Virus record (IMG/VR): IMGVR_UViG_2778261381_000011
Source of the DNA: a virus
Taxonomy: Duplodnaviria; Heunggongvirae; Uroviricota; Caudoviricetes
Reading direction: 5' to 3' (one strand)
Length of the DNA: 23,253 nt
The position numbers and the translations under genes are program-made. Under the pieces are notes generated by a model. It ran no database searches and was not told the DNA's origin. It was given only the letters and a program-made list of their open reading frames with translations. The first letter of the stretch is position 1; each line of letters starts with the position of its first letter. This document shows positions 3,019 through 20,132 of this stretch, piece by piece.

Positions 3019-3366
3019 TCAACTCACAGGGATGGTTAACGAAAGTGGCTGGCCGGTGTCGTTGTGCTGACCGGTTAACGTGACCGTCATTCGCCCGTCA
3101 AAACTGCGCTCAGTGGTGACGGATGACAGGGTGACGCGGGGTTCCCATTTCAGCACGGCCATGTAACAGGCGACCTTAATCTGCAACTCAAGCGCCGGGG
3201 TCTGCGGCTGGTCAATCATTGACGCCAGCAACGAGCCGTAATCACGACGCATCACCCGTGAGCCGACCGGCGTGCGCAGGATATCGCCGATACTCTGGCT
3301 GATATGCTCAAGGTCAGTGACCGTCAGGCCATCACTGCGATTCATTCCGAGATAACGCGCTGTCAT
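3019..3366 (-). CDS. W: Baseplate protein gpW (GPW/gp25 family)
   Basis: 115 aa, P2 gpW length; overlaps V stop by 4 nt. Confidence 0.9.
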   Translation of the reverse strand: MTARYLGMNRSDGLTVTDLEHISQSIGDILRTPVGSRVMRRDYGSLLASMIDQPQTPALELQIKVACYMAVLKWEPRVTLSSVTTERSFDGRMTVTLTGQHNDTGQPLSLTIPVS

Positions 3367-3998
3367 AGAGGACTCCCGGTTGTGCCGCCGCTGTCGCCGG
3401 GGTGTTTATGGGTATGCAGTACCTTACCGTTTGATGAGAGTTCACCGCCGGTGTGTTCAATGTTGCCGCGCATCGTCCCGCCCTTCTGCACTTCCAGCGT
3501 GCCGGTAATCAGCCTGTTGGTGCAGACCACCTCTGGTGTGTCCAGGGTGACGCGGGTTGATGCTTTCACCGTGACCACCGGCACCGTGGCAGTAACAGAA
3601 TCAGAAGCCGTCACGCTGGCCGTTTTAATTCCGCTTACCGTAAGTGCACTGGTTTCGGGTTCATACTCAATCACCGCCCCGTCAGGGAAACGGATATGCA
3701 GGGCATCCGCCGACGCAGACGGCGCGGGATTATCGCCGGAATAAATCCCCGGCAGAACAAACGCCGTGTCGAGTTCACCGCCCACGGCCAGAATCAGCAC
3801 CTGTTCCCCCACGGAAGGTGCCCACCATGTGCGCGAACGCCCGGCACGATGGGTCAGCCACTGAAGCCAGTCGGTGCACATGCCGCCGGTCTGCACACGG
3901 CAGCGACCGGCGTTAAGGTCGGTTTCGACGATAACGCCGGTGCGAATCATGTTGCGCAGTGCGCGCGCGAGTTCCTGAATATTTGCGAGAGTGTTCAT
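3363..3998 (-). CDS. V: Baseplate spike/assembly protein gpV
   Basis: Track ORF starts at a TTG (4034); the internal ATG at 3998 gives MNTLANIQELARALRNM..., the P2 gpV N-terminus, and a 211-aa product. Confidence 0.9.
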   Translation of the reverse strand: MNTLANIQELARALRNMIRTGVIVETDLNAGRCRVQTGGMCTDWLQWLTHRAGRSRTWWAPSVGEQVLILAVGGELDTAFVLPGIYSGDNPAPSASADALHIRFPDGAVIEYEPETSALTVSGIKTASVTASDSVTATVPVVTVKASTRVTLDTPEVVCTNRLITGTLEVQKGGTMRGNIEHTGGELSSNGKVLHTHKHPGDSGGTTGSPL

Positions 3999-4075
3999 AA
4001 CGGGAAGGATGCCGCCGGACGATACCAGCAGCAATCATGGAGGACTCTGTCAGCCGTGACACAACATAATAAATA

Positions 4076-4831
4076 TTAGTTGTAACACTTCTCTATAATC
4101 TTCATACACTCCTCATGAGCTAAATCATGGCTGTCAAATTCTTTATTAAAAAAGAAGAAAAACGCCTTCTTAACCTGAGGCATTTCAATAAAAATAAATT
4201 CATCAACCTTATGAAAGAAATGAAAACTCTTGTTTGATGTTTCAAAAACCATCAAAGAATTATGTTTTTTATCCTTCCATTTCGACATCAGATTGCGTCG
4301 CGATTTTCGTATAATCCTGAAGACATCCCCCGGCGTCGTATCGACATTCCCCCAAAACATTGCAACCGGGAAGTTTGCAAGGAAAGGGATATAATCACCC
4401 CCTTTATACCTGAGAAAGCGGGTCCGTAAATCCATTAATTGCAACTTAAAGCCCATGTATTGCAACCACCATATGATGCAATCATATTCATAATCTGTTA
4501 ACTCATCCCCCCTTTTTTCCGTAAGAAATTTCTTCAGGTTATACTCAAACACTCCCAGCAAATCAGAATTGCACACTCTGCATGCTGGTACAGTGGCTTT
4601 AATGTAATGAGTTGACTGATTATTCTTTTTATTAATTAAAGATTTTTCAGCATTTGACTCAAAGGCCCACTGAGGAATAATGTGCTCACGAGTAATATCG
4701 TCAGAACTCCCGCATAACACACATATATCAGCATTATGGTCGGCAATAATACAATCCATAACTTTCTTTTGAGAATGCTTTACTCTTTTTCTCAAAATGG
4801 AAAACTTTTTATCCACAAACACCCGTCTCAT
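4076..4831 (-). CDS. Hypothetical protein with HNH-nuclease-like zinc-finger motif; AT-rich cargo gene in the P2 orf30 slot
   Basis: 251-aa ORF. CVLCGSS-DDITREHIIPQ ... NKKNN ... CRVCNSD fits the CxxC...(D/E)H...N...CxxC pattern of HNH (beta-beta-alpha-Me) nucleases. Composition visibly AT-rich versus flanking S and V. ATG overlaps the S stop (ATGA); an alternative ATG at codon 25 exists. Confidence 0.6.
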   Translation of the reverse strand: MRRVFVDKKFSILRKRVKHSQKKVMDCIIADHNADICVLCGSSDDITREHIIPQWAFESNAEKSLINKKNNQSTHYIKATVPACRVCNSDLLGVFEYNLKKFLTEKRGDELTDYEYDCIIWWLQYMGFKLQLMDLRTRFLRYKGGDYIPFLANFPVAMFWGNVDTTPGDVFRIIRKSRRNLMSKWKDKKHNSLMVFETSNKSFHFFHKVDEFIFIEMPQVKKAFFFFFNKEFDSHDLAHEECMKIIEKCYN

Positions 4832-5286
4832 ATAACATCTTTCGATAGAATCACTAATAACTCCCTTTCTATCAATTGTATAGATTCCTTGTCAAAACCA
4901 AATAACTCACGAACAGGATATTCCACCACAGCACTGTTACGCCCCGGCTTATCCCTAAGCCCTAATTGATGTACCCGCGCAATTCGTTGTACTCCGCTGG
5001 CAAACGCCACCACAGCCGCACTCTCGCTACCTGTTGCTTTCATAAACCGGTTAGTGCGTAATTTCACAAACATTTCCCGCTTTATCCGGCCTTTCTTATT
5101 TCGTACTGGTTGGTTTTTTCTCGGTACATACGGCGTACCATCCGGGGCTTTTTGTAATTTAATTCGCTGCTGCTGGCGCTGGCGCAGCTTCTTCGCAATA
5201 TCTACCGCCAGTCTCCGGCGCCCTGACGGTGACAGCGACTCAATAAGTCCGGTCAGCCGGTCTTCAAAACGCTTAAACTCATTCAT
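4828..5286 (-). CDS. S: Tail completion protein gpS
   Basis: 152 aa, begins MNEFKRFEDRLTGLIESLSPSGRRRL..., P2 gpS-like; position after R. Confidence 0.9.
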   Translation of the reverse strand: MNEFKRFEDRLTGLIESLSPSGRRRLAVDIAKKLRQRQQQRIKLQKAPDGTPYVPRKNQPVRNKKGRIKREMFVKLRTNRFMKATGSESAAVVAFASGVQRIARVHQLGLRDKPGRNSAVVEYPVRELFGFDKESIQLIERELLVILSKDVI

Positions 5287-5746
5287 CCCACTTGCTCACC
5301 AGTTCGCGATTGATATACAGCTCCATCGGGCGGGTGACCGGCTCCGGCGGCGGAGGTTCCGGGATATTCTTCACATGCAGCGCACCGTCAACCTCACTGA
5401 CCAGCGTGCGCTCGGTCAGCATCAGGCTGATACTGATATCAAAGCTGCTGTCATTGTTGATGTCTGCATAAAATGTGAAGCCTTTTTTCTGGCCTTCGTC
5501 AGTGGTCATGATGTCGGGCTGATTTTCCCGCAGCCACGCCAGCACCGGCACAATGAGCAGGTCAAAATCACCGGTAAAATCGGTCACAATGACATTGAGC
5601 GTGTAACGCTTTTCGAATGACAGCGACGTCGCCAGTGTGGAGGCAATACTCCCGTTATCCACGAATATCCGCAGCATCTCGGGACTGGTTTTCAGCACCG
5701 TGACGGCATCAGTCAGCGCCCTGCGCAGGCTGTCGGGTTTGAGCAT
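5279..5746 (-). CDS. R: Tail completion protein gpR
   Basis: 155 aa, P2 gpR length and position; overlaps S start by 8 nt. Confidence 0.9.
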   Translation of the reverse strand: MLKPDSLRRALTDAVTVLKTSPEMLRIFVDNGSIASTLATSLSFEKRYTLNVIVTDFTGDFDLLIVPVLAWLRENQPDIMTTDEGQKKGFTFYADINNDSSFDISISLMLTERTLVSEVDGALHVKNIPEPPPPEPVTRPMELYINRELVSKWDE

Positions 5747-5999
5747 CGTTTTCGTCCTGACAGTGTTTAATCATTTTTACCTGGCTGGCACAGCGTGCCA
5801 GCGCGTTCTCAAGCTGCCGGATATCGGCACTTAAATCGCCGTTCGTCTCCGGGTCACTGCCCGGCATCGGGCAAAGGCTCACTTTCGGGCAGGCGTTGGC
5901 GACAATCACTGGCGTCTGCGCAGGCCGGGCGCTGGTGCAACCGGCGCACAGCATCAGGCAGGTCAGCACCGTACCAGCGGCGAAAATCTTCGTTTTCAT
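5709..5999 (-). CDS. lysC: LysC, Rz1-like outer-membrane lipoprotein (o-spanin), nested out of frame in lysB 3' end and R 5' end
   Basis: Internal ATG at 5999 preceded by GAGG; product MKTKIFAAGTVLTCLMLCAGC... has a lipoprotein signal and lipobox (LCAGC); 96 aa. Confidence 0.85.
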   Translation of the reverse strand: MKTKIFAAGTVLTCLMLCAGCTSARPAQTPVIVANACPKVSLCPMPGSDPETNGDLSADIRQLENALARCASQVKMIKHCQDENDAQTRQPAQGAD

Positions 6000-6279
6000 T
6001 GAGTAACCTCGTGATGGTTTTCTCGCGCTGTGCTTCACGCTTCGCGGCGTTCTCCAGCTCCTGACGCAGTGCCACCTGCGCCAGCTCGTTTTTGTCTGCC
6101 CTGGTGAGCGCAACATGAAGCTGATTTTTCAGCATGGTGATGGTCGTCTGCTGCCCGCTGGCAACGTTGTTCGCCCTGTCCAGCGAGGCGCGCAGGCTGG
6201 CATTTTTGTGTTTCACAAGAAACAGACCGGCCACCGCCAGTGATAACAACACAACCAGCACAATCATCAGCCTTGACAT
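5854..6279 (-). CDS. lysB: LysB, Rz-like inner-membrane spanin
   Basis: 141 aa; N-terminal TM segment (LMIVLVVLLSLAVAGLFLV) then a charged helical region; P2 lysB position and length. Confidence 0.85.
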   Translation of the reverse strand: MSRLMIVLVVLLSLAVAGLFLVKHKNASLRASLDRANNVASGQQTTITMLKNQLHVALTRADKNELAQVALRQELENAAKREAQREKTITRLLNENEDFRRWYGADLPDAVRRLHQRPACADASDCRQRLPESEPLPDAGQ

Positions 6280-6692
6280 GGTTCCCGCCCCTCAAAACGC
6301 TGACGGCAGGCCGTACGTATCAGCCGGAAGAACACCGACACCACGAGGTAAATCAGCGCAGTAAAAATCCACCCGGCGGCAACCAGCGAGATAAATGTCG
6401 CCACCATCACCACCAGAGCTACTGCCCGTCTGCGCCACGGCACCGGCTGCAAAAACAGCGACATGACAATCTTCACGGCCAGCGATTCCGGCGGAAGCTC
6501 CCGCCCGTAGCGTTCCAGCACATACTCAGTGGCATACATGCCGACACCACCGGCAACCACACAGATAACCGTCGCCAGAATCGCCCAGGCAGCGACAAAA
6601 CTTACGGCCACGCTCTGCGGGTAAATCAGGGACAGTGCCAGCATCAGCGCCAGCGACACGTTCAGCATCAGTGAAAGGGATAATTTCTTCAT
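6267..6692 (-). CDS. lysA: LysA, membrane protein of the lysis cassette
   Basis: 141 aa with multiple hydrophobic segments; between K and lysB as in P2. Confidence 0.85.
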   Translation of the reverse strand: MKKLSLSLMLNVSLALMLALSLIYPQSVAVSFVAAWAILATVICVVAGGVGMYATEYVLERYGRELPPESLAVKIVMSLFLQPVPWRRRAVALVVMVATFISLVAAGWIFTALIYLVVSVFFRLIRTACRQRFEGREPCQG

Positions 6693-6706
6693 GGTGTTTA
6701 CTCCGT

Positions 6707-7204
6707 TTAAGCCGGTACGCCGCCAGCGGTACGCCAGACGGTGACCAGTTTTTCCAGTGAATGCTCACGCTGACCGTAACCGGCACCCGGCAGGGACGCC
6801 CAGATATTGCGACAGCGTGAAATGGCGCGCTCAATGCGTCCCGCCCGGATGTCATCCAGTGCACCGCGTTCGCGGATCAACTGAATGGCAAGTCTGTCCT
6901 GTGACAACGGACTGAAATCCGGCAGGGCAAGCTGTTTGCGGTAATGCGGCCAGAACAGGTAAAGCTGCTGATAACGACCGGAGGCCGTGGATTTTTCACC
7001 GCGACGGTTAAACACCTTCGCCGGTCGGCCATGTGCGAACGGGTGGTCACTGTAGTCGGTGAAGATTTCCGGCTTCCCGTCCAGTCCGGTGACTATCACG
7101 TCATAGCCCCGGTTTTTCGTCAGCGGATGATTCGCCGTCCCTTCGGACACGGCCAGCATGTCGAGAAAGGCGGCGATATTCTGATGCGTGTTAATTACCG
7201 GCAT
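6707..7204 (-). CDS. K: Endolysin gpK
   Basis: 165 aa, P2 gpK length; directly downstream of holin Y. Confidence 0.9.
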   Translation of the reverse strand: MPVINTHQNIAAFLDMLAVSEGTANHPLTKNRGYDVIVTGLDGKPEIFTDYSDHPFAHGRPAKVFNRRGEKSTASGRYQQLYLFWPHYRKQLALPDFSPLSQDRLAIQLIRERGALDDIRAGRIERAISRCRNIWASLPGAGYGQREHSLEKLVTVWRTAGGVPA

Positions 7205-11207: not shown

Positions 11208-12980
11208 ATGACCATCACCACAGACACCACTCTTTTACACGACCCGCGTCGTCAGGCGGCGCTGCTGTACTGGCAGGGGTTTTCCGTGCCGCAAATTGCC
11301 GCCATGTTGCAGATGAAACGCCCGACGGTGCAGAGCTGGAAACAGCGCGACGGCTGGGACAGTGTTGCCCCCATCAGCCGTGTCGAAATGAGTCTGGAAG
11401 CGCGGCTGACCCAGCTCATCATCAAACCGCAGAAAACCGGCGGTGACTTCAAGGAAATTGACCTGCTCGGACGCCAGATTGAACGACTGGCACGGGTCAA
11501 CCGTTACAGTCAGACCGGCAACGAGGCAGACCTTAATCCGAACGTCGCTAACCGCAACAAAGGCGGGCGTCGCCAACCGAAAAAGAATTTTTTCAGTGAC
11601 GAGGCCATCGAAAAGCTGGAGCAGATTTTCTTTGAGCAGTCTTTCGAATATCAGTTGCACTGGTATCGCGCCGGGCTTGAGCACCGCATCCGCGATATCC
11701 TGAAATCCCGCCAGATTGGCGCGACGTTTTATTTTTCCCGCGAGGCGCTGCTGCGCGCCCTGAAAACCGGTCATAACCAGATTTTTCTGTCGGCCAGTAA
11801 AACGCAGGCGTATGTGTTCCGCGAATACATCATCGCCTTTGCCCGGCTGGTTGACGTTGACCTGACCGGTGACCCGATTGTCCTGGGCAATAACGGCGCA
11901 AAACTGATTTTTCTCGGCACCAACTCCAACACCGCGCAGAGCCATAACGGAGACCTGTACGTCGACGAGATTTTCTGGATCCCGAATTTTCAGGTACTGC
12001 GTAAGGTGGCATCAGGTATGGCCTCACAGAGTCACCTGCGCTCGACCTATTTCTCCACCCCGTCCACGCTGGCGCACGACGCCTACCCGTTCTGGTCGGG
12101 TGAACTGTTCAACCGGGGACGTGCCAGCGCCGCCGAACGTGTGGAAATCGACGTCAGTCATAACGCCCTTGCCGGTGGGCTTCTCTGTGCGGACGGCCAG
12201 TGGCGACAGATTGTCACCATTGAGGACGCCCTGAAAGGTGGCTGCACGCTGTTCGACATTGAGCAGCTCAAACGTGAAAACAGCGCCGACGATTTTAAAA
12301 ACCTGTTCATGTGTGAATTTGTTGACGACAAGGCGTCGGTGTTCCCGTTCGAGGAGCTGCAACGCTGCATGGTCGACACGCTGGAAGAATGGGAAGACTA
12401 TGCGCCGTTTGCCGCCAATCCGTTCGGCTCCCGCCCGGTATGGATTGGTTACGACCCGTCACACCGTGGCGACAGTGCCGGATGCGTGGTGCTGGCACCG
12501 CCGGTGGTGGCCGGTGGCAAATTCAGAATACTTGAGCGTCACCAGTGGAAAGGCATGGACTTTGCCACCCAGGCGGAATCCATCCGCAAACTCACCGAAA
12601 AATATAACGTTGAATACATCGGTATTGATGCCACCGGCCTCGGTGTCGGTGTTTTCCAGCTCGTGCGCTCGTTCTATCCCGCCGCTCGCGATATCCGCTA
12701 CACGCCGGAAATGAAAACCGCAATGGTGCTCAAGGCAAAAGACGTTATCCGCCGTGGCTGTCTGGAATATGACGTCAGCGCCACCGACATCACCAGCTCG
12801 TTTATGGCTATCCGCAAGACCATGACCAGCAGCGGACGCAGCGCCACCTATGAGGCCAGCCGCAGCGAGGAAGCCAGCCACGCCGACCTCGCCTGGGCGA
12901 CCATGCACGCTCTGTTAAATGAGCCACTCACCGCCGGTATCAGCACCCCGCTGACATCCACCATTCTGGAGTTTTACTGA
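11208..12980 (+). CDS. P: Terminase ATPase (large) subunit gpP
   Basis: ATG at 11208 preceded by GAGG; product MTITTDTTLLHDPRRQAALLYWQG..., 590 aa as in P2 gpP. Track ORF begins at a TTG. Confidence 0.95.
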   Translation: MTITTDTTLLHDPRRQAALLYWQGFSVPQIAAMLQMKRPTVQSWKQRDGWDSVAPISRVEMSLEARLTQLIIKPQKTGGDFKEIDLLGRQIERLARVNRYSQTGNEADLNPNVANRNKGGRRQPKKNFFSDEAIEKLEQIFFEQSFEYQLHWYRAGLEHRIRDILKSRQIGATFYFSREALLRALKTGHNQIFLSASKTQAYVFREYIIAFARLVDVDLTGDPIVLGNNGAKLIFLGTNSNTAQSHNGDLYVDEIFWIPNFQVLRKVASGMASQSHLRSTYFSTPSTLAHDAYPFWSGELFNRGRASAAERVEIDVSHNALAGGLLCADGQWRQIVTIEDALKGGCTLFDIEQLKRENSADDFKNLFMCEFVDDKASVFPFEELQRCMVDTLEEWEDYAPFAANPFGSRPVWIGYDPSHRGDSAGCVVLAPPVVAGGKFRILERHQWKGMDFATQAESIRKLTEKYNVEYIGIDATGLGVGVFQLVRSFYPAARDIRYTPEMKTAMVLKAKDVIRRGCLEYDVSATDITSSFMAIRKTMTSSGRSATYEASRSEEASHADLAWATMHALLNEPLTAGISTPLTSTILEFY

Positions 12981-14014
12981 TGAGCAAGAAAAAAGGGAAA
13001 ACACCGCAACCTGCGGCAAAAACAATGACCGCCAGCGCCCCGAAAATGGAGGCATTCACCTTTGGCGAGCCGGTGCCGGTACTCGACCGCCGTGACATTC
13101 TGGATTACGTCGAGTGCATCAGTAACGGCAGATGGTATGAGCCGCCGGTCAGCTTTACCGGTCTGGCGAAAAGCCTGCGTGCTGCCGTGCATCACAGCTC
13201 GCCGATTTACGTCAAACGCAATATTCTGGCCTCGACATTTATCCCGCATCCGTGGCTTTCCCAGCAGGATTTCAGCCGCTTTGTGCTGGATTTTCTGGTG
13301 TTCGGTAATGCGTTTCTGGAAAAGCGTTACAGCACCACCGGTAAGGTCATCAGACTGGAAACCTCACCGGCAAAATATACCCGCCGTGGTGTGGAAGAGG
13401 ATGTTTACTGGTGGGTGCCGTCCTTCAACGAGCCGACAGCCTTCACGCCCGGCTCCGTGTTTCACCTGCTGGAGCCGGATATCAATCAGGAGCTGTACGG
13501 CCTGCCGGAATATCTGAGCGCCCTTAATTCTGCCTGGCTGAATGAGTCGGCCACGCTGTTCCGCCGCAAGTATTACGAAAATGGCGCACATGCCGGATAC
13601 ATCATGTACGTCACCGATGCCGTGCAGGATCGCAACGATATCGAAATGCTTCGCGAAAACATGGTTAAGTCGAAAGGCCGCAACAACTTTAAAAATCTGT
13701 TTCTCTATGCCCCACAGGGGAAAGCCGACGGCATTAAAATTATCCCCCTCAGTGAAGTGGCGACGAAGGACGATTTTTTTAATATCAAAAAAGCCAGTGC
13801 CGCTGACCTGCTGGACGCGCACCGCATCCCCTTTCAGTTGATGGGTGGCAAGCCGGAGAACGTCGGGTCGCTGGGTGATATTGAGAAAGTGGCAAAGGTC
13901 TTTGTCCGCAATGAGCTTATCCCGTTACAGGACAGGATTCGGGAAATAAACGGCTGGCTCGGCCAGGAGGTCATCCGCTTTAAAAACTACTCACTGGACA
14001 CTGACAACGGCTGA
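12980..14014 (+). CDS. Q: Portal (capsid vertex) protein gpQ
   Basis: 344 aa, begins MSKKKGKTPQPAAKT...; start overlaps the P stop as ATGA. Confidence 0.95.
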   Translation: MSKKKGKTPQPAAKTMTASAPKMEAFTFGEPVPVLDRRDILDYVECISNGRWYEPPVSFTGLAKSLRAAVHHSSPIYVKRNILASTFIPHPWLSQQDFSRFVLDFLVFGNAFLEKRYSTTGKVIRLETSPAKYTRRGVEEDVYWWVPSFNEPTAFTPGSVFHLLEPDINQELYGLPEYLSALNSAWLNESATLFRRKYYENGAHAGYIMYVTDAVQDRNDIEMLRENMVKSKGRNNFKNLFLYAPQGKADGIKIIPLSEVATKDDFFNIKKASAADLLDAHRIPFQLMGGKPENVGSLGDIEKVAKVFVRNELIPLQDRIREINGWLGQEVIRFKNYSLDTDNG

Positions 14015-14019
14015 ACATC

Positions 14020-14041
14020 GCCGCCTGCGGGCGGCTTTTTT
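14020..14041 (+). terminator. Rho-independent terminator downstream of Q
   Basis: GCCGCC-tgcg-GGCGGC hairpin (14020..14035) followed by TTTTTT (14036..14041), 6 nt after the Q stop. Confidence 0.65.
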
Positions 14042-14182
14042 ACACCCCGCCATCACGCCCTCACACGCTCATCACCGCACAAAAAATCCCGCAGACACAC
14101 CAACGCCCAGCAGGCCAAGTAAACGCCTTCACGACGCGCTCAGACGCTGAAAAAATAAAATCAGCGCCACCGCCAGCGCGCA

Positions 14183-14201
14183 GTGCTTTCCCCGCCTCGC
14201 C
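14183..14201 (-). other. cos: P2-type cos site (19-nt cohesive end sequence)
   Basis: Minus strand reads GGCGAGGCGGGGAAAGCAC, which matches the P2 cohesive-end sequence as I recall it; it lies beyond the Q end, as in P2. Confidence 0.75.
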
Positions 14202-14220
14202 CGCCCGCTTCATGGGGCAA

Positions 14221-14248
14221 TTTGAATGCAAATGCATTAGCATTCAAA
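14221..14248. repeat. 28-bp near-perfect palindrome between cos and the cargo genes
   Basis: TTTGAATGCaAATGCATTaGCATTCAAA: 9-bp arms TTTGAATGC/GCATTCAAA around a palindromic AATGCATT core, two mismatched positions. Further GCAT/ATGC-rich palindromic motifs (TGCATGCA) lie at about 14293..14320. Confidence 0.5.
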
Positions 14249-14338
14249 AGCTATCCCCCAAGCAGCCTGTAAGAGTTTTTACCTCTACTTGTTTTGCATG
14301 CAAATTAATGCAATAGCATATACACCTACAGCATCTGA

Positions 14339-15628
14339 CTACTTTGTAAAAAGAGGCCTATATTTTTCAAACAAGGAGGTTTCGGATGTATTAACATCAG
14401 TGGCAGGCTGCATCTCAGCATGTTGCTTTTGTAAACGTTTAAATCTATCAATTGAATCTTTAATTAACCAAGACATTGACACCATTTCTAAAGGAGTGCG
14501 AAGCATCATTTGCCATGACACACCCCAAATCAATGAGCTACCTAATTCTTTAAATATCATCGAATAGTCTTCACCATCGACAAAAACAAGCTCAAACCCT
14601 TCATTCAAAGCTATTTGTTTAAAACAACCCAAATCAAGAACACAGAGAATAGTTAACTCCCCATTTATAAAGTCACACAAATCACGCGCATCATTTATAA
14701 GATTAACAAATGGAGTTAAAGGAACCCACAATTGATTATTTTTATATTCATTCAAAAATATAGGTGCAATTTCCCTCCCTCTAAGATCCAACTGTGATAA
14801 TGCTATATCCAGATCACAGCCACGATTAGATACCACATAAAATCCATCTTCTAGCCTTACCCATGAAATTCCTTTTTTCCTGCATACATTCAGATGCTCA
14901 TTAAATTCTTTTTTATATGTAACTTCTGAAAAACACAGTTCTTTCCTTAACACTAATGGCATCCCTCTAAAATCTTCAGCTTTATCTTCTGCTAAAAATT
15001 CAGCCAGTCTATTAAGGTTATTTTTTTGACGTTCAACACGATCATTTTTATTTTGACTTGATTTCACCTCCACCAGTACTGGTGCACCTTCACCAAGTAA
15101 ACAAACATCACCATGCCTCATACTCATTGTAATATCATTGAGTAACGTAGGAACACCAGCCTTGCAGGCCTTCTTCACCAATTCCCATTCTTCTTTTAAG
15201 CCATCCTTCCCTCCCATATAGCCCGCTGACTCCTTGGGACTGTAATCCACAACATTATAGAAAAAATGCTTAATATCAAACTTATCCAAATACAAAAAAG
15301 CAACACTATCACCAAACATTTTGAAGATATATATTTTAAATTTCACATCATCAATAGCCTGCTCAACACTCTTAATATTTTCCTTAATAAGTTTAGATTG
15401 TTCTTTTTTTAAACCACCTTTTCTTTTTGTTGCCTTTAGTTCCCCTAAGAAAGACTTTAATCCTTTGATCATCCTTTCACTTCTAATTATATTCCTTATT
15501 ATTTTGAACTGAAACGACAACAACAAATCTGTATTTTTTAGGTTTCCCTCTAATTTTACCAGGTCTTTTTTCAAATCAAACACTACCGAGTCATGCAATT
15601 TTCGACTCAATTCAGTCTTAAACTTCAT
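14339..15628 (-). CDS. Hypothetical protein with PD-(D/E)xK nuclease-like motif; AT-rich cargo at the P2 old/tin locus
   Basis: 429-aa ORF with ATG start and GAGGGA RBS 4 nt upstream. Helical/charged N-terminal ~100 aa, then ...EEWELVKKACKAGVPTLLNDITMSMRHGDVCLLGEGAPVLVEVKSSQ... giving E, D, ExK and Q in the order and spacing typical of PD-(D/E)xK nucleases. No TM segments. Not recognisable as Old or Tin. Confidence 0.6.
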   Translation of the reverse strand: MKFKTELSRKLHDSVVFDLKKDLVKLEGNLKNTDLLLSFQFKIIRNIIRSERMIKGLKSFLGELKATKRKGGLKKEQSKLIKENIKSVEQAIDDVKFKIYIFKMFGDSVAFLYLDKFDIKHFFYNVVDYSPKESAGYMGGKDGLKEEWELVKKACKAGVPTLLNDITMSMRHGDVCLLGEGAPVLVEVKSSQNKNDRVERQKNNLNRLAEFLAEDKAEDFRGMPLVLRKELCFSEVTYKKEFNEHLNVCRKKGISWVRLEDGFYVVSNRGCDLDIALSQLDLRGREIAPIFLNEYKNNQLWVPLTPFVNLINDARDLCDFINGELTILCVLDLGCFKQIALNEGFELVFVDGEDYSMIFKELGSSLIWGVSWQMMLRTPLEMVSMSWLIKDSIDRFKRLQKQHAEMQPATDVNTSETSLFEKYRPLFTK

Positions 15629-15675
15629 AGTTCCCTCAATAAAAGCAACTTACAGTCAAGGTAATTACTCCTGTT

Positions 15676-15737
15676 GTGGAACAGACTATTGCAGTCTCGT
15701 TCCACCACTAGTATAACAAGTATCAATACGGCATCAA
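15676..15737 (-). promoter_or_regulatory. Candidate sigma70 promoter and leader hairpin in the gap between the two cargo genes
   Basis: Minus strand reads TTGATG (15737..15732), 16-nt spacer, TATACT (15715..15710), then an imperfect hairpin GTGGAACAGACT-attgc-AGTCTcGTTCCAC (15676..15705) with no U-tract, then the RBS of the 429-aa gene. Confidence 0.3.
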
Positions 15738-15740
15738 CGA

Positions 15741-16472
15741 TTAGTTATCTAATACTGAAACGACTTCGCCCGTTCGGATGTCGACACGCGCAGCAATAGT
15801 CTGTTTAACTACTCCTCCATAAGCATTAGTGCCACGAAATGTGGTTTTCACAATGGCGTGCGGGTCTTTATTCAAAACCAAATGATATACCGTTGACACA
15901 TGTTTATAAGATGAATCATCGTTCATATTATCCTTAATTAGTTTTTCCAATGGACGATAAGAACCATCCCAACCACTAAAATTGCTCTGAAATGTATCAA
16001 GATTGATTTTATTGTTTAGTGAATTCGGGTCATTTTCATAATCATTAAAGCACCATCCAAGAACATCACCGAGTTTCAACTCATCATCTTTGGTAAATGT
16101 ATACTCACTCATGCAGGCATAAAATGCATCTGATGCGGTGACTGGCACTTTCTTAAAGTTAATGTAACTATTCACAATATCGTGTCGAGTCTTCTTTGGC
16201 TCGTTCCGATATTCCTTGAGTGTTTTTTCAGTATATTCGAATGTTTTTTGAGCCTGATGTTCTGCTACGGTTGCTGTTTCAGTTTTAGCAACTGGCTGGC
16301 TTTTTTCTGTTGGGTAGAGTATTGAACCAATTATGCTCAATGCAAAACCACCTCCGAGATAAACCGCACTTGCACGTTTACGGTTTGGCATCCGCACCAG
16401 TGATGGCTTGATTAACCCGATGAAAAAAGCAACGAAAAAAGCGAGTGATAGAAAAGCGATTACAATATCCAT
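15741..16472 (-). CDS. Hypothetical membrane protein with two N-terminal TM helices and a ~190-aa soluble C-terminal domain; AT-rich cargo
   Basis: Track ORF starts at a GTG (16496); the ATG at 16472 has an AAAGGA RBS and gives MDIVIAFLSLAFFVAFFIGLI (TM1), KPSLVRMPNRKRAS (basic loop), AVYLGGGFALSIIGSILY (TM2), then a hydrophilic domain. Confidence 0.6.
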   Translation of the reverse strand: MDIVIAFLSLAFFVAFFIGLIKPSLVRMPNRKRASAVYLGGGFALSIIGSILYPTEKSQPVAKTETATVAEHQAQKTFEYTEKTLKEYRNEPKKTRHDIVNSYINFKKVPVTASDAFYACMSEYTFTKDDELKLGDVLGWCFNDYENDPNSLNNKINLDTFQSNFSGWDGSYRPLEKLIKDNMNDDSSYKHVSTVYHLVLNKDPHAIVKTTFRGTNAYGGVVKQTIAARVDIRTGEVVSVLDN

Positions 16473-16701
16473 AGCTATCCTTTTTGCATCATCCACATAA
16501 AAAATCGATCTTATGTTAGCAACAGGAAGCTTACTTTTGAATATTTGTAAGTTGTTAGCTTTAGCTCTCCGAGCTAACTCCTTTCAACCGTCAAAAACCA
16601 GCACCAACGCAGTAAAAATATGACTATCAACTAACGCCTCGCTTCGCGAGTTGTTCAACCCCGCCAGCCCTGAAAACAAGTTTCACGACTGGCGGCGTTC
16701 T

Positions 16702-16908
16702 CTATCGTCTTCGTGGTGGTGGCGTAACTCTTGATTGACCGATATGGTTAAACCGCCCGTAATTATCCCGGACTATTTCGGCACACCCGACTAGCTCATC
16801 TGGCGTCAGATTTTCGTTGACCATAATCCGCTGTAGACGGTGAACAATGGCCATCAGCTTGATATTTTTAGTTTTATGCTGAGGTATCTCGCCTGGTATT
16901 CTGTGCAT
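16702..16908 (-). CDS. Small hypothetical protein (68 aa) coupled to the orf91-like gene
   Basis: ATG at 16908..16906 overlaps the upstream TAA as TAATG; product MHRIPGEIPQHKTKNIKLMAIVHRLQRIM.... No recognisable domain. Confidence 0.3.
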   Translation of the reverse strand: MHRIPGEIPQHKTKNIKLMAIVHRLQRIMVNENLTPDELVGCAEIVRDNYGRFNHIGQSRVTPPPRRR

Positions 16909-17363
16909 TATCCAAGCCACCCGTTTTGCTGTGCACGCTCCATCTGTTCATCTGAATAGTTCCATGCTCCATCCGTGGCAACCATTGCCCCGCCAGACAT
17001 CCCCGTCTCTGGTTCATACATAACAGCAAGGCCGAGCTGATGCATAATTTCATGATTAATTCTGAATACCAGACCACGCTCACTAAGTTCTTTCCAGTTC
17101 ACAATCTCATGTGCACCTGTATTAAGCAGCTCAATACTTAGCAAGACATAATCTTCCAGCCAGTCTGACAGGTCAGTAACATCTGTTATCCGGGCTTCAA
17201 CCTTTCGCCCCGTATACACACCCTGCACCCATTCATGCAAAATCAACGTGTCCCCGCGCTCATAATTACGGTCATTTTTCCGAAACTCTGCGCGTTTCTT
17301 TCCTTCCAGCACAAGGTCGAAATATTTTGCGTGCAGCTTTACCTCGTGAATTTTAGCCATCAT
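16908..17363 (-). CDS. orf91-position protein: ASCH/DUF3850-like N-terminal domain with a ~70-aa C-terminal extension
   Basis: Tandem ATGs at 17363/17360 overlap the A stop (ATGATGA). N-terminus MAKIHEVKLHAKYFDLVLEGKKRAEFRKNDRNYERGDTLILHEW resembles the small beta-barrel ASCH-like family. C-terminal part contains HEIMH (an HExxH pattern). Confidence 0.6.
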   Translation of the reverse strand: MMAKIHEVKLHAKYFDLVLEGKKRAEFRKNDRNYERGDTLILHEWVQGVYTGRKVEARITDVTDLSDWLEDYVLLSIELLNTGAHEIVNWKELSERGLVFRINHEIMHQLGLAVMYEPETGMSGGAMVATDGAWNYSDEQMERAQQNGWLG

Positions 17364-19645
17364 GTCCACTCCATTACTGTTGAGAATCCCGGCCACTCAT
17401 CAGCGACCGAATACGTGAATTTTTTCCCGTCATAATTTACGGTTGCCCCACGCGCCAGCGCCTCAATCTCCCATCGCTGAGGCCTGATACCGTTCTGAGC
17501 AAGGTCAACGCGGATACGGGTAATTTGCATTCTTTCCGACCGGGTCAGTCTGGCCGATGGTGCAATTTCATGTGGTTTTAACGGGCTTCCGTTTCTTTGC
17601 TGACGGTTTGGCGTTCTCAGGTCGTGTTTTAATGCGCCCCTGAGCGCCCTCACGACCTCCGGTTCATTCCATTCAATAACACCGTTATCAACCAGATTAA
17701 GCACTGCTGCGGCGTGCTCAGAAGGTGTGGGAGCCAGTAACGAAGCATCACCACCAGTGAGCTTTCCACAGTTATTGACAGGACTCCGAGGCGCGGCGAT
17801 GCCGCTTTTTAAAGTCAAAGGCTCAACGACCGGAACTTTCGGCACAATGCGCCAGTCCGTCGTTCTGGTGATATGAATATGACGCGCGCCGAGATGCGGC
17901 GCGTAAATGCCGACCACTCTCTCGACTTCTTCCTCGTACTCGTTAACGTCATCCGACGGGCTACGGGCGACCCTGACAGTCTGACGATCGCGCGGAACAT
18001 TTGCCCCACCCTGCGCGCTGATATACAACGCAAAATCACCACTGTCTGCGGCGGCGCGTGCAGCCTCGACGCGTTCGTCAAACTCATCAGCAATGCTGAC
18101 GCCACGAGGCAATTTGCGTAGTTCACGGTAAGCCCCCATTGTCGGCAGACCAACCGTTTTAAATTGCGGGATGCGCCACGTTGACGCCCATGCGGTAACA
18201 GCCGCGGCAGTATCTTTAAGCGGCCTGCCGGTATCGTTATCGAGCTGACCATCCAGTGCATAGCCGTCGATATTTTTTGAGATGTATTTAGCGATATACC
18301 CCGCAGCACCACCCCGGTTAAGGTGTTTTGCCTGAAAACGGTTTCGCGCGGCTCCTCTTTCGTCGCCATCCTCTTTGAGCGCATAGCGACGCATGATTTC
18401 GATAATCTGGTTACGCTGGCGTGGATTACAAAAAAGCATCATATGCCAGTGCGGTGTTCCGTCGTGGTGTGGCTCGACGACACGCAAACCGTAGACCTGT
18501 AAATCATTATCCTTGAATGCCGTACGCATCAGGCTCCAGATACGGCAGAGATAACGCTGCGCATCCTTTGGATTAAATGCCTCATCATTCCAGCCGTGAT
18601 TAAGCTGGACGGTTTTACTTTCGCCTTTTCCGACCTGACGTGTCGGGTGATACTTTGACGGCGTGGTCAGCGTGATAAACATCCCCACATCACCCTCTGC
18701 GGCGGCGTAACGCTCAATACCGGCAATGGTGTTCATCAGCTCCATCCGGCGAATTTCAGGATTAGAAATACTGCCCATCACCTTACTGATAAGGTCGATG
18801 CGCTCGCCGGTTTCCCTGTTTTCAAGGTCACACGATTTAAGAAATTCCAGATTTGCCTGGCGGCGTGCACGCACATCACGAATGGCATGTTTACTGGCAT
18901 AAGGAGAACGGTCTTTATTCACCTCCCCGACAGCAATCAGTAACGCCTCATGCCAGCGCATACGCTGGCCTTTAAGCTGATGAGTCCACCACTCATCGTT
19001 AAACAGACGGGCAATGGCAGAATATGCCTGCCTCGTGGTCATCTGTCCTTTACGGTATTTTTTCCAGTAGAGAGGGGAAATATTGAAAGCACGTGCAGCG
19101 CCAGCAACATGACCATAGAGGTGAGCCTGCGCCTCATCCGTAAACAGCGATTCTTTTTCGCCATGTGCATCCACCCAGGCATCGCTGAGTTCCTCATACA
19201 TCATGAAAAGCTGCGATGAGATACGGGCAGCAAACTTTTTCAGGTCCTTGTCATTCATTCCCGGCAGGCGCGCATAGTGGTCACGCTCTGCCAGAAACAG
19301 TAACGACGCGTCGGTGTTCATTTCATGGCGCTGATTCACACGCTCAATGCGCGGCCATAAACGACGCTGAAAAGTGGATGTGAGGAAATAAAACCCGTGC
19401 ACCGGGCTTTTATTGCGCCGGATGTAGTCATAGCGTGAAGTAAACAGCGAGCGCAAAAAGTAAGGCAGGCGGTTAATCGTGGATAAAACACCTTGCACCT
19501 GACGCATCTCGTCACGTGTAAGGGGTCTTTCGCGCCCGACGGCCTCGCGTGGCGCGTTCCATGCATAAGCACCGGTAAACGTCTTACCGGTGCCTGCGGC
19601 AAATGCTGACGGAGGGACAAAACGCCCGGAGGCTTTAACGGCCAT
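17360..19645 (-). CDS. A: Replication initiation endonuclease gpA (rolling-circle initiator)
   Basis: ATG at 19645 gives MAVKASGRFVPPSAFAAGTGK..., 761 aa, near-identical to P2 gpA as I recall it. The track's 14-aa N-terminal extension is probably not used. Confidence 0.95.
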   Translation of the reverse strand: MAVKASGRFVPPSAFAAGTGKTFTGAYAWNAPREAVGRERPLTRDEMRQVQGVLSTINRLPYFLRSLFTSRYDYIRRNKSPVHGFYFLTSTFQRRLWPRIERVNQRHEMNTDASLLFLAERDHYARLPGMNDKDLKKFAARISSQLFMMYEELSDAWVDAHGEKESLFTDEAQAHLYGHVAGAARAFNISPLYWKKYRKGQMTTRQAYSAIARLFNDEWWTHQLKGQRMRWHEALLIAVGEVNKDRSPYASKHAIRDVRARRQANLEFLKSCDLENRETGERIDLISKVMGSISNPEIRRMELMNTIAGIERYAAAEGDVGMFITLTTPSKYHPTRQVGKGESKTVQLNHGWNDEAFNPKDAQRYLCRIWSLMRTAFKDNDLQVYGLRVVEPHHDGTPHWHMMLFCNPRQRNQIIEIMRRYALKEDGDERGAARNRFQAKHLNRGGAAGYIAKYISKNIDGYALDGQLDNDTGRPLKDTAAAVTAWASTWRIPQFKTVGLPTMGAYRELRKLPRGVSIADEFDERVEAARAAADSGDFALYISAQGGANVPRDRQTVRVARSPSDDVNEYEEEVERVVGIYAPHLGARHIHITRTTDWRIVPKVPVVEPLTLKSGIAAPRSPVNNCGKLTGGDASLLAPTPSEHAAAVLNLVDNGVIEWNEPEVVRALRGALKHDLRTPNRQQRNGSPLKPHEIAPSARLTRSERMQITRIRVDLAQNGIRPQRWEIEALARGATVNYDGKKFTYSVADEWPGFSTVMEWT

Positions 19646-20132
19646 ATGAGCCAAAAGCCTCTGAACAACGCTTGCTGAGTTGCTCAACCTGCGCGTTTAA
19701 ATCAGCAAAAGACTTTGCGCTTCCGGTCAGAATATCGTGATGCATCAGGCCGGAAACGAGCTGGCTTAATTTCGGGTAATAACCAACCACCGCCAGCCAT
19801 TCCTGACCGGCGTTTTTACCGCTTTCCGCTCTCTTTTTCTCGTGGAGAATAAACTGAAAGCTGTCACTGGTAACGACATAACGTTCGCCAATTTCAATAC
19901 GAATACTCATGCCGTTCTCCGGTAATGTTTGTTTTTTTGCTTCAAAGACTGACTGACAGGAAACACAACGCGTGGCTGACGGGTAAGCCGCACGACGGGC
20001 AGCAGGTATTGGCGCGTCACACTCTTCGCAAACCAGCGCAGAAGCACCGCAATGTTTTACCCTTGCCGCGTTAATCTGGCGCTCCAGTAATTCAGCCTGT
20101 TGTTCCTGAATAAAATCTACGTTGTCCGGCAT
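19635..20132 (-). CDS. orf82/orf83-like region read as one 165-aa ORF: TraR/DksA-type C4 zinc-finger domain followed in frame by a second small-protein domain
   Basis: N-terminal part has CEEC...(19 aa)...CVSC (TraR/DksA-like zinc finger). An internal ATG (MSIRIEIGERYVV...) marks where a second gene would start, but no stop codon separates the two parts. Confidence 0.7.
   Translation of the reverse strand: MPDNVDFIQEQQAELLERQINAARVKHCGASALVCEECDAPIPAARRAAYPSATRCVSCQSVFEAKKQTLPENGMSIRIEIGERYVVTSDSFQFILHEKKRAESGKNAGQEWLAVVGYYPKLSQLVSGLMHHDILTGSAKSFADLNAQVEQLSKRCSEAFGSYGR

Follow-up and report, generated by a model that had tools for sequence, protein, structure and literature searches.

The DNA analyzed here (the window), a stretch of 23,253 nucleotides (nt) from the IMG/VR virus record IMGVR_UViG_2778261381_000011, is a P2-like prophage of Escherichia coli, and one open reading frame (ORF) in it, at 14339-15628, encodes a 429-amino acid (aa) protein with the sequence hallmarks of a nuclease. 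On the evidence of sequence comparison and structure modeling, we consider the chances to be somewhat better than even that this protein is a stand-alone PD-(D/E)xK endonuclease, similar to the Holliday junction resolvase Hjc, that the prophage expresses and that serves to exclude other phages or rival elements. The components of this interpretation differ in strength: the nuclease fold is very likely, the predicted role in defense is probable, and the gene belongs to the swappable, accessory part of the prophage, outside the set of phage core genes.

A first-pass annotation of this DNA, made from the sequence alone, had proposed the ORF without giving a strand. The ORF is genuine and lies on the minus strand, where it runs over 429 codons from an ATG start to a TAG stop and coincides with the RefSeq coding sequence (CDS) WP_001704922.1, labeled 'hypothetical protein'. 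The product of WP_001704922.1 is 100% identical in E. coli 09-02E, and the segment 14000-17400 of the window also shows 100% identity to that strain. The G+C content of the gene is 34.1%, compared to ~53% in neighboring phage core genes (portal, replication).

The protein belongs to a large family. A word-indexed search found 22 relatives, and a profile search run exhaustively over 1.84 billion cluster representatives (clusters at 50% identity) retrieved 1,380 representatives at E<=0.001, of which 469 reached E<=1e-30. The family is spread, in ~1,380 clusters, over many phyla; among the matches listed, the proteins are 254-463 aa long, and most align over nearly the whole profile. Conservation was assessed in two alignments, one of 83 homologs with 23-69% identity to the query and the other of an independent set, consisting of 78 homologs from GTDB species representatives together with the query. 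Eleven residues, namely G106, D107, G143, E147, T167, D174, E187, K189, R197, Q201, and R377, are invariant in the first alignment (83/83); in the second, D174, E187, K189, and Q201 are retained in 79 of 79 sequences and E147 in 78 of 78. E51 of the N-terminal helical bundle is invariant as well, as is the FGD motif that includes G106 and D107, and conserved residues of the C-terminal domain comprise E260, G262, P306, F320, R377, E381, and S384.

Because it is conserved across the homologs, the catalytic motif is far beyond chance. The PD-(D/E)xK-like signature noticed in the first-pass annotation, within a stretch that corresponds to residues 146-192, is therefore borne out, its acidic and ExK residues being invariant family-wide. 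Two details of that assignment have to be revised. The glutamine said to follow ExK, Q192, is not conserved, the position being occupied mostly by K, R, or S, and the invariant glutamine is Q201 in the next helix. Likewise, the strand 'ending in D' does end in a well-kept residue, D165 (82/83), but the alignment with Hjc singles out D174, with which the next strand starts, as the canonical catalytic aspartate.

An AlphaFold2 model built on a 22-sequence alignment (mean predicted local distance difference test score, pLDDT, 87.6; predicted template modeling score, pTM, 0.88) has three domains (Table 1), among them the helical N-terminus and the restriction endonuclease-like core around the proposed residues that had been anticipated, the latter with modest scores throughout in the profile comparison. 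The core consists of helix 142-156, strands 161-163, 175-177, and 184-186, helix 196-214, and strand 216-220, i.e., alpha-beta-beta-beta-alpha-beta, and carries E147 on helix 1; strand 2 starts at D174, and strand 3 bears E187-V-K189. The same elements recur when residues 118-405 are modeled alone, with the pLDDT of the core dropping to 48-75; given that confidence in the core falls once the bundle is removed, the models suggest that the N-terminal bundle packs on the nuclease core. After the motif come ~228 aa by our count, approximately as estimated (~240 aa), and most of them form an alpha/beta domain for which profile and sequence searches detected no relative. The possibility that this C-terminal domain is a second, degenerate nuclease domain was rejected (hhalign probability against the core 0.4%), and we propose that it is a sensor or substrate-binding module.

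The link to Hjc comes from the core. A profile of residues 128-236 (50 sequences) has Hjc proteins as its three best PDB sequence matches (E ~0.1), with E147 paired to E12, D174 to D42, E187 to E55, and K189 to K57, and with GKxGxxxE147 aligned against KGSAVE12; all four Hjc positions are invariant among 19 Sulfolobales Hjc proteins. When the core was compared to the alignment of these 19 proteins, hhalign gave a probability of 81% over 83 columns in the same register, and 79.5% against a single Hjc sequence; in the control comparison, between the C-terminal domain and the core, the value was the 0.4% given above. Searched against Pfam, the 50 core segments yielded recurrent sub-threshold matches to Hjc, PDDEXK_9, PDDEXK_15, RE_EcoO109I, TnsA_N, HSDR_N, and NOV_C; the Hjc model (PF01870) was matched weakly in 4 of the 50 segments, at 13.7 bits for the core against a gathering cutoff of 21.1 bits, and the full-length protein did not match it. 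A full-length profile run against PDB sequences produced only coiled-coil noise (syntaxin, keratin). Archaeal-type Holliday junction resolvases have E / (S)D / EVK as their published signature (PMC8805305).

Given that three independent methods converge on one family and one register and that the residues concerned are invariant, we hold the PD-(D/E)xK fold of the protein to be highly probable, and we infer that it acts as a nuclease. It resembles the Hjc/Hje enzymes (PF01870, which includes the Thermus phage 15-6 enzyme) in KGxxxE of helix 1, (S/G)D of strand 2, and E-V-K of strand 3. Nevertheless, identity to them is ~20%, and whereas Hjc is a single-domain protein of ~140 aa (141-151 aa in Sulfolobales) encoded by a conserved recombination gene, the present protein adds a helical bundle and a C-terminal domain to the core and is encoded by variable mobile-element cargo of bacteria. 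Because it falls below the Pfam threshold and is three times larger, it stands outside the Hjc family proper. Nor was it placed in another family by the model libraries searched, in agreement with the statement in the first-pass annotation that the family was not a recognized one: Pfam, NCBIfam (June 2026), and PADLOC v2 gave no match for the query and no family-level match for the 83 relatives, the best PADLOC match (PADLOC-DB v2.0.0, 2023) having an E-value of 0.0017 and involving single sequences only. The Pfam and NCBIfam scans also confirmed that ATPase, reverse transcriptase, and transmembrane matches are lacking. The only PHROGs match is to phrog_14906, an 'unknown function' family.

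The genomic setting points to accessory cargo. Pfam matches along the window follow the P2 order (tail fiber, baseplate J/W/V, tail completion R/S, small terminase, P2-type capsid, scaffold GPO, terminase, portal, GPA, integrase), and the nuclease gene lies between portal gene Q, which ends at 14014, and replication gene A, which ends at 17360. The cos-proximal end of this interval is marked by the string GGCGAGGCGGGGAAAGCAC at 14183-14201, which we take to be the core of the P2/P4 cos packaging site. A 60-aa ORF annotated at 14061-14243 in some RefSeq genomes overlaps the match and is probably spurious. The same string occurs in the hotspot-flanking DNA of P4 constructs (Rousset et al., 2022, Table S2). 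The A-Q interval of P2 has been shown to be a hotspot of anti-phage systems that holds old and tin in P2 itself (Rousset et al., 2022, PMC9122126), and the hotspots of P2 (gpA-gpQ) and of P4 (psu-int) were defined in the same work (PMC9122126).

The family gene is present in 27 of 5,426 complete E. coli genomes, 17 of which have a P2-type and 10 a P4-type allele. At the gpA-gpQ locus of P2, it occurs in the window, in another 16 genomes of E. coli, and in Citrobacter, where a homolog with 69% identity is the sole gene between A and Q of a P2-like prophage. Homologs with 49-51% identity are found between psu and int of P4-like satellites of E. coli and Pluralibacter, and those with 27-38% identity (on IMG/VR contigs) lie at most three genes from gpA, terminase, or portal genes or from psu, ogr, or int genes. 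Most family members sit outside recognizable phages and have unrelated neighbors. In E. coli strain AR_0372, whose prophage is similar in other respects, the slot of the nuclease gene holds an unrelated 218-aa gene, with the three other cargo genes kept; the DUF3850/ASCH gene and the 68-aa ORF (Table 1) are retained in this strain, and the distal cassette differs. Of the copies in these 27 genomes, a single one was seen to be disrupted: in strain LR-45 (NZ_AP027532.1, locus L014, 4001-6551), an IS3-family element splits the gene within a degenerate P2 remnant beside yegQ/yegR.

The P2-type and P4-type alleles of E. coli share ~50% protein identity, and DNA identity (68%) is detectable over a 400-nt stretch only. 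Given this low identity, the two kinds of elements carry old, separate lineages of one family without exchange between them, which fits the recent published observation that P2 and P4 rarely swap defense genes.

A conserved partner was sought in 80 loci from Proteobacteria, Acidobacteria, Spirochaetes, Bacteroidetes, Chloroflexi, Planctomycetes, Chlorobi, Actinobacteria, and other phyla, by all-against-all clustering of their ORFs. Apart from antisense shadows of the nuclease gene itself, no cluster is common to more than five loci, and the 125 immediate neighbors represent 130 different Pfam families; a conserved partner of the gene is therefore lacking, be it an antitoxin, a methyltransferase, or an ATPase. 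Within the window, neither the protein with two predicted transmembrane helices (2TM) nor the DUF3850/ASCH protein qualifies: of the 5,426 E. coli genomes, 84 have the 2TM gene, and 66 of these 84 lack the nuclease gene, whereas in Citrobacter the nuclease gene stands alone. Together with the 68-aa ORF, these genes are independent cargo. The immediate neighbors in other genomes include SduA (twice), HerA, QatC, QatD, PD-T4-6, AAA_15/AAA_21 ATPases, integrases, and transposases. Altogether, about a dozen of the 125 match known or candidate defense proteins (SduA, HerA, QatC/D, PD-T4-6, mad3/6, PDC), a raw count without a background rate that we regard as a suggestive hint of a defense role.

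Two of the individual loci deserve mention. In the P4-like satellite of E. coli A1 (locus L012), the P4-type nuclease allele (4001-5290) is convergent to a gene for a 457-aa protein without a Pfam domain (WP_001406847.1; 5392-6765, minus strand), which overlaps the integrase gene by 4 bp and is a frequent co-resident of the P4 hotspot (Rousset et al., 2022, Table S1). This protein was rejected as a partner, being missing from the P2 loci and from Pluralibacter. In Ramlibacter tataouinensis (locus L008), the homolog (5846-6982, plus strand) starts 19 nt after a gene on the same strand that encodes HTH_3 and Peptidase_M78 (ImmA/IrrE-type) domains, and a PemK-like toxin fragment lies downstream; the upstream gene, which is not conserved in the other loci, may be a locally acquired regulator.

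The defense interpretation is drawn from the location in the hotspot that holds old and tin, the low G+C content, the swapping of the cassette, its patchy presence, and the lack of a partner; the occurrence as a stand-alone cassette in the defense hotspots of both P2 and P4 lends additional support to the 'nuclease effector' of the first-pass annotation. In the mechanism that we envisage, a metal-dependent endonuclease would be made constitutively in the lysogen from its own promoter and would be harmless to the host either through its substrate specificity or through autoinhibition by the helical bundle packed on the core (E51, G106-D107). Because there is no partner gene, self-protection would have to be intrinsic, resulting from selectivity for branched, unusual, or modified DNA or else from inhibition by the bundle. 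Upon infection, the C-terminal domain, the bundle, or both would recognize a phage-specific feature, for which branched replication or recombination intermediates, free ends, modified DNA, and a phage protein are candidates, and the nuclease would then cut nucleic acid such that the invader is stopped or the infection aborted. We put at even odds the more far-reaching proposal that the protein founds a widespread bacterial immune system of a single gene, new to science, in which an Hjc-like nuclease is gated by a C-terminal sensor of a kind not seen before and an N-terminal helical latch, which has been recruited separately to the P2 and P4 hotspots, and which possibly reads a new infection signal.

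Several observations weigh against assigning the protein to defense as a nuclease. Every similarity score to solved nucleases is below conventional significance, and a Foldseek comparison of the full model to the PDB returned nothing significant (no match at E<0.7). A tblastn search of 50,697 deposited phage genomes (INPHARED) gave no match, and most of the immediate neighbors outside Enterobacteria are ordinary metabolic genes. The cargo of the hotspots is not all defensive, partition systems and toxins having been noted (PMC9122126), and 3 of 8 additional cloned P2 systems were protective (Rousset et al., 2022, PMC9122126). The protein is in no list of tested systems in three relevant studies, subscription literature being outside the search. 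Finally, a partnerless, constitutively made nuclease would need some way of avoiding damage to its own host.

Among the alternatives, the best supported, albeit unlikely, is a special case of the defense interpretation and not an alternative to it, namely, a Type IV-like, modification-dependent restriction endonuclease whose C-terminal domain reads a modified base, such as hydroxymethylcytosine (hmC), glucosyl-hmC, or another hypermodification. Such an activity would explain how a lone nuclease remains harmless without a methyltransferase or an antitoxin, and it agrees with the combination of a nuclease with a separate domain of ~170 aa in a stand-alone protein that has neither a conserved partner nor a methyltransferase; furthermore, the shared hotspots also carry restriction genes. 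Nevertheless, the C-terminal domain was unlike SRA-like, Mrr-N, or any other known domain in the searches and is of mixed alpha/beta structure, as opposed to the mostly-beta SRA fold. Pfam and PADLOC scans matched the protein to no sequence family of Type IV enzymes and, in contrast to MspJI, PvuRts1I, and Mrr, no modification-reading domain was recognized in it.

A housekeeping function for the element itself is improbable. The enzyme could be a structure-specific resolvase or recombination nuclease that acts on branched or concatemeric DNA near cos, given that the nearest detectable relatives are Holliday junction resolvases, one of them from a phage, that the gene is located 138 nt from cos, and that both P2 and P4, two elements with a common packaging machinery, carry it. 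Yet far fewer than 1% of E. coli genomes contain the gene, as does a small fraction of P2 and P4 elements, and unrelated genes freely take its place, so that the phage life cycle cannot depend on it; the abundance of family members outside phages, and the threefold size with two extra domains relative to a resolvase, point the same way. A selfish homing-type nuclease that spreads its own cassette between hotspots would be a variant of the same idea, but a cassette in active homing would not show an identity as low as ~50% between its P2 and P4 versions.

We give even less credence to an abortive-infection toxin that cuts RNA, for example tRNA, and stops translation upon infection. Some proteins with the PD-(D/E)xK fold are indeed RNases, such as the CdiA-CT tRNases and the EndA-like splicing endonucleases. 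The profiles, however, lead to Hjc and DNA nucleases (PDDEXK_9/15, EcoO109I, TnsA, HsdR-N), and the full E/D/ExK metal-binding tetrad, which is typical of DNA phosphodiesterases, is invariant. Least probable of all is an inactive protein, with a role such as DNA binding or regulation, in which the motif is a structural relic or a chance likeness: the sub-significant scores to solved nucleases would allow it, but relics lose catalytic residues, whereas in ~160 sequences from many phyla, with an overall identity of 23-35%, all four are kept without exception, as are Q201, R197, and T167, and the three methods agree independently on family and register.

Several known systems offer comparisons. 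Shedu (SduA) is a single-protein system in which a PD-(D/E)xK nuclease is joined to a non-catalytic domain thought to be regulatory, and two members of the present family are direct neighbors of SduA. In Shedu, the nuclease domain is C-terminal, whereas here it is central; the flanking domains are unrelated, and the SduA_C/DUF4263 (PF14082) models of Pfam and PADLOC match neither the query nor any of the 83 relatives. The old and tin genes of P2 occupy the same position, between genes A and Q beside cos, and are likewise prophage-expressed accessory genes. Old is also a nuclease, combining an ATPase with a TOPRIM nuclease domain, but it has no relation in sequence or fold to the 429-aa protein, and Tin is unrelated as well. 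Bandua 4A (NERD, PF08378), Aernus 5A (DUF4365, PF14280), and the 13-14 PD-(D/E)xK systems of DefensePredictor are similar in that they combine the nuclease fold with novel flanking regions and reside in P4 or prophage hotspots, and phage resistance has been established for them; the present protein matches neither the NERD nor the DUF4365 model.

Both alleles have been catalogued before as hotspot cargo. In Table S5B of Rousset et al. (2022, PMC9122126), the exact 429-aa sequence is entered as system 138 of the P2 hotspot, a one-gene system without a domain that occurs 16 times; Table S1B of the same study gives the P4 allele (WP_000742539) as system 32, likewise of one gene, which occurs 48 times. 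RefSeq labels both as hypothetical, and neither is in the table of evaluated systems (Table S2) of that study. Five systems, Crouga, Bandua, Aernus, Toga, and Reve, were validated in a 2026 study of the hotspots in P2 and P4; string searches with a positive control found neither allele among the synthesized constructs of that study, and the protein was not found in the DefensePredictor supplements. Identity with any of these five systems, or with the three-gene P2 system '3HP' of Rousset et al., was excluded by protein and DNA string searches and by domain content. As far as we have seen, the gene has thus been catalogued as cargo but never annotated or tested, and to this record the present analysis adds the strand, a corrected catalytic assignment, the three-domain layout, the size and taxonomic spread of the family, and its status as a stand-alone cassette in the P2 and P4 hotspots.

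PD-(D/E)xK nucleases are the commonest domain among newly validated defense systems (DefensePredictor study), and another such nuclease with novel flanking domains would be useful but not surprising. The occurrence of the same cargo family in P2-like phages and P4 satellites is a rare case; if the defense role is real, this would be one of the few cargo families common to a helper phage and its satellite, and a compact single-gene nuclease defense family with two domains without known relatives, such that a new mode of infection sensing is possible. Current defense annotation tools miss every copy because the family lacks a Pfam, NCBIfam, or PADLOC model.

Table 1. Features of the nuclease gene, its product, and the surrounding hotspot in the window
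Feature	Coordinates	Strand	Remarks
CDS WP_001704922.1, 429 aa	14339..15628	minus	ORF scan and RefSeq match; example of an undescribed family of ~400-aa proteins
N-terminal three-helix bundle, residues 13-123	15260..15592	minus	helices 13-28, 33-70, 75-113, 116-123; pLDDT 90-96
Hjc-like PD-(D/E)xK core (predicted), residues 132-230	14939..15235	minus	model, conservation, Hjc profile alignments
Core motifs			GKxGxxxE147 in helix 1; DxT167 after strand 1; GD174 in strand 2; E187-V-K189 in strand 3; R197xxRQ201 in helix 2
Putative catalytic codons	E147 15188-15190; D174 15107-15109; E187 15068-15070; K189 15062-15064; Q201 15026-15028	minus	
C-terminal alpha/beta domain, residues 236-405 (~170 aa)	14414..14923	minus	family-specific; from the model
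Shine-Dalgarno GAGGGA	15632-15637	minus	3 nt from the ATG of the nuclease gene
Sigma-70-like promoter match TTGATG, 16-nt spacer, TG-TATACT	15710..15737	minus	consensus match only; in the 112-bp upstream gap
Terminator-like GC hairpin followed by T-rich tail	14164..14179	minus	~160 nt downstream of the nuclease stop codon
Presumed P2/P4 cos core match GGCGAGGCGGGGAAAGCAC	14183..14201	minus	1 match, 0 expected; 138 nt beyond the nuclease stop codon
Variable region, P2 old/tin hotspot	14015..17359	.	from portal Q, 12980-14014 (+), to replication gene A, 17360-19687 (-)
2TM protein, 243 aa	15741-16472	minus	two N-terminal hydrophobic helices, soluble C-terminal part; phrog_3403 (unknown function)
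68-aa ORF	16702-16908	minus	phrog_11386
DUF3850/ASCH + DUF7415 protein	16908-17396	minus	immediately downstream of replication gene A

The promoter-like site upstream of the nuclease gene and the hairpin with its T-tract downstream are consistent with an independent transcription unit, the numbers of such promoter- and terminator-like sites around the gene being no higher than in shuffled sequence. The space that separates the 2TM gene from the nuclease gene also holds an imperfect hairpin at ~15676-15705 (minus strand), GTGGAACgAGACT-gcaat-AGTCTgTTCCAC, which is positioned between the promoter-like site and the ribosome-binding site and is not followed by a T-run; it might act as a weak terminator, be a site of RNA processing, or function as an operator. 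The 2TM protein, which matches no Pfam or PADLOC model, could be a membrane-level exclusion protein.

Scans of the window with Rfam and for tRNA genes gave no matches. A second region of low G+C content (36%), a moron at 4076-4831 on the minus strand, lies between the tail completion gene S (4828-5286) and the baseplate spike gene V (3363-4034), at the position of orf30 of P2. It consists of a 251-aa ORF that belongs to phrog_10503 (unknown function) and has no Pfam match and only insignificant PADLOC matches (E ~0.03), and it may be a further accessory or defense candidate.

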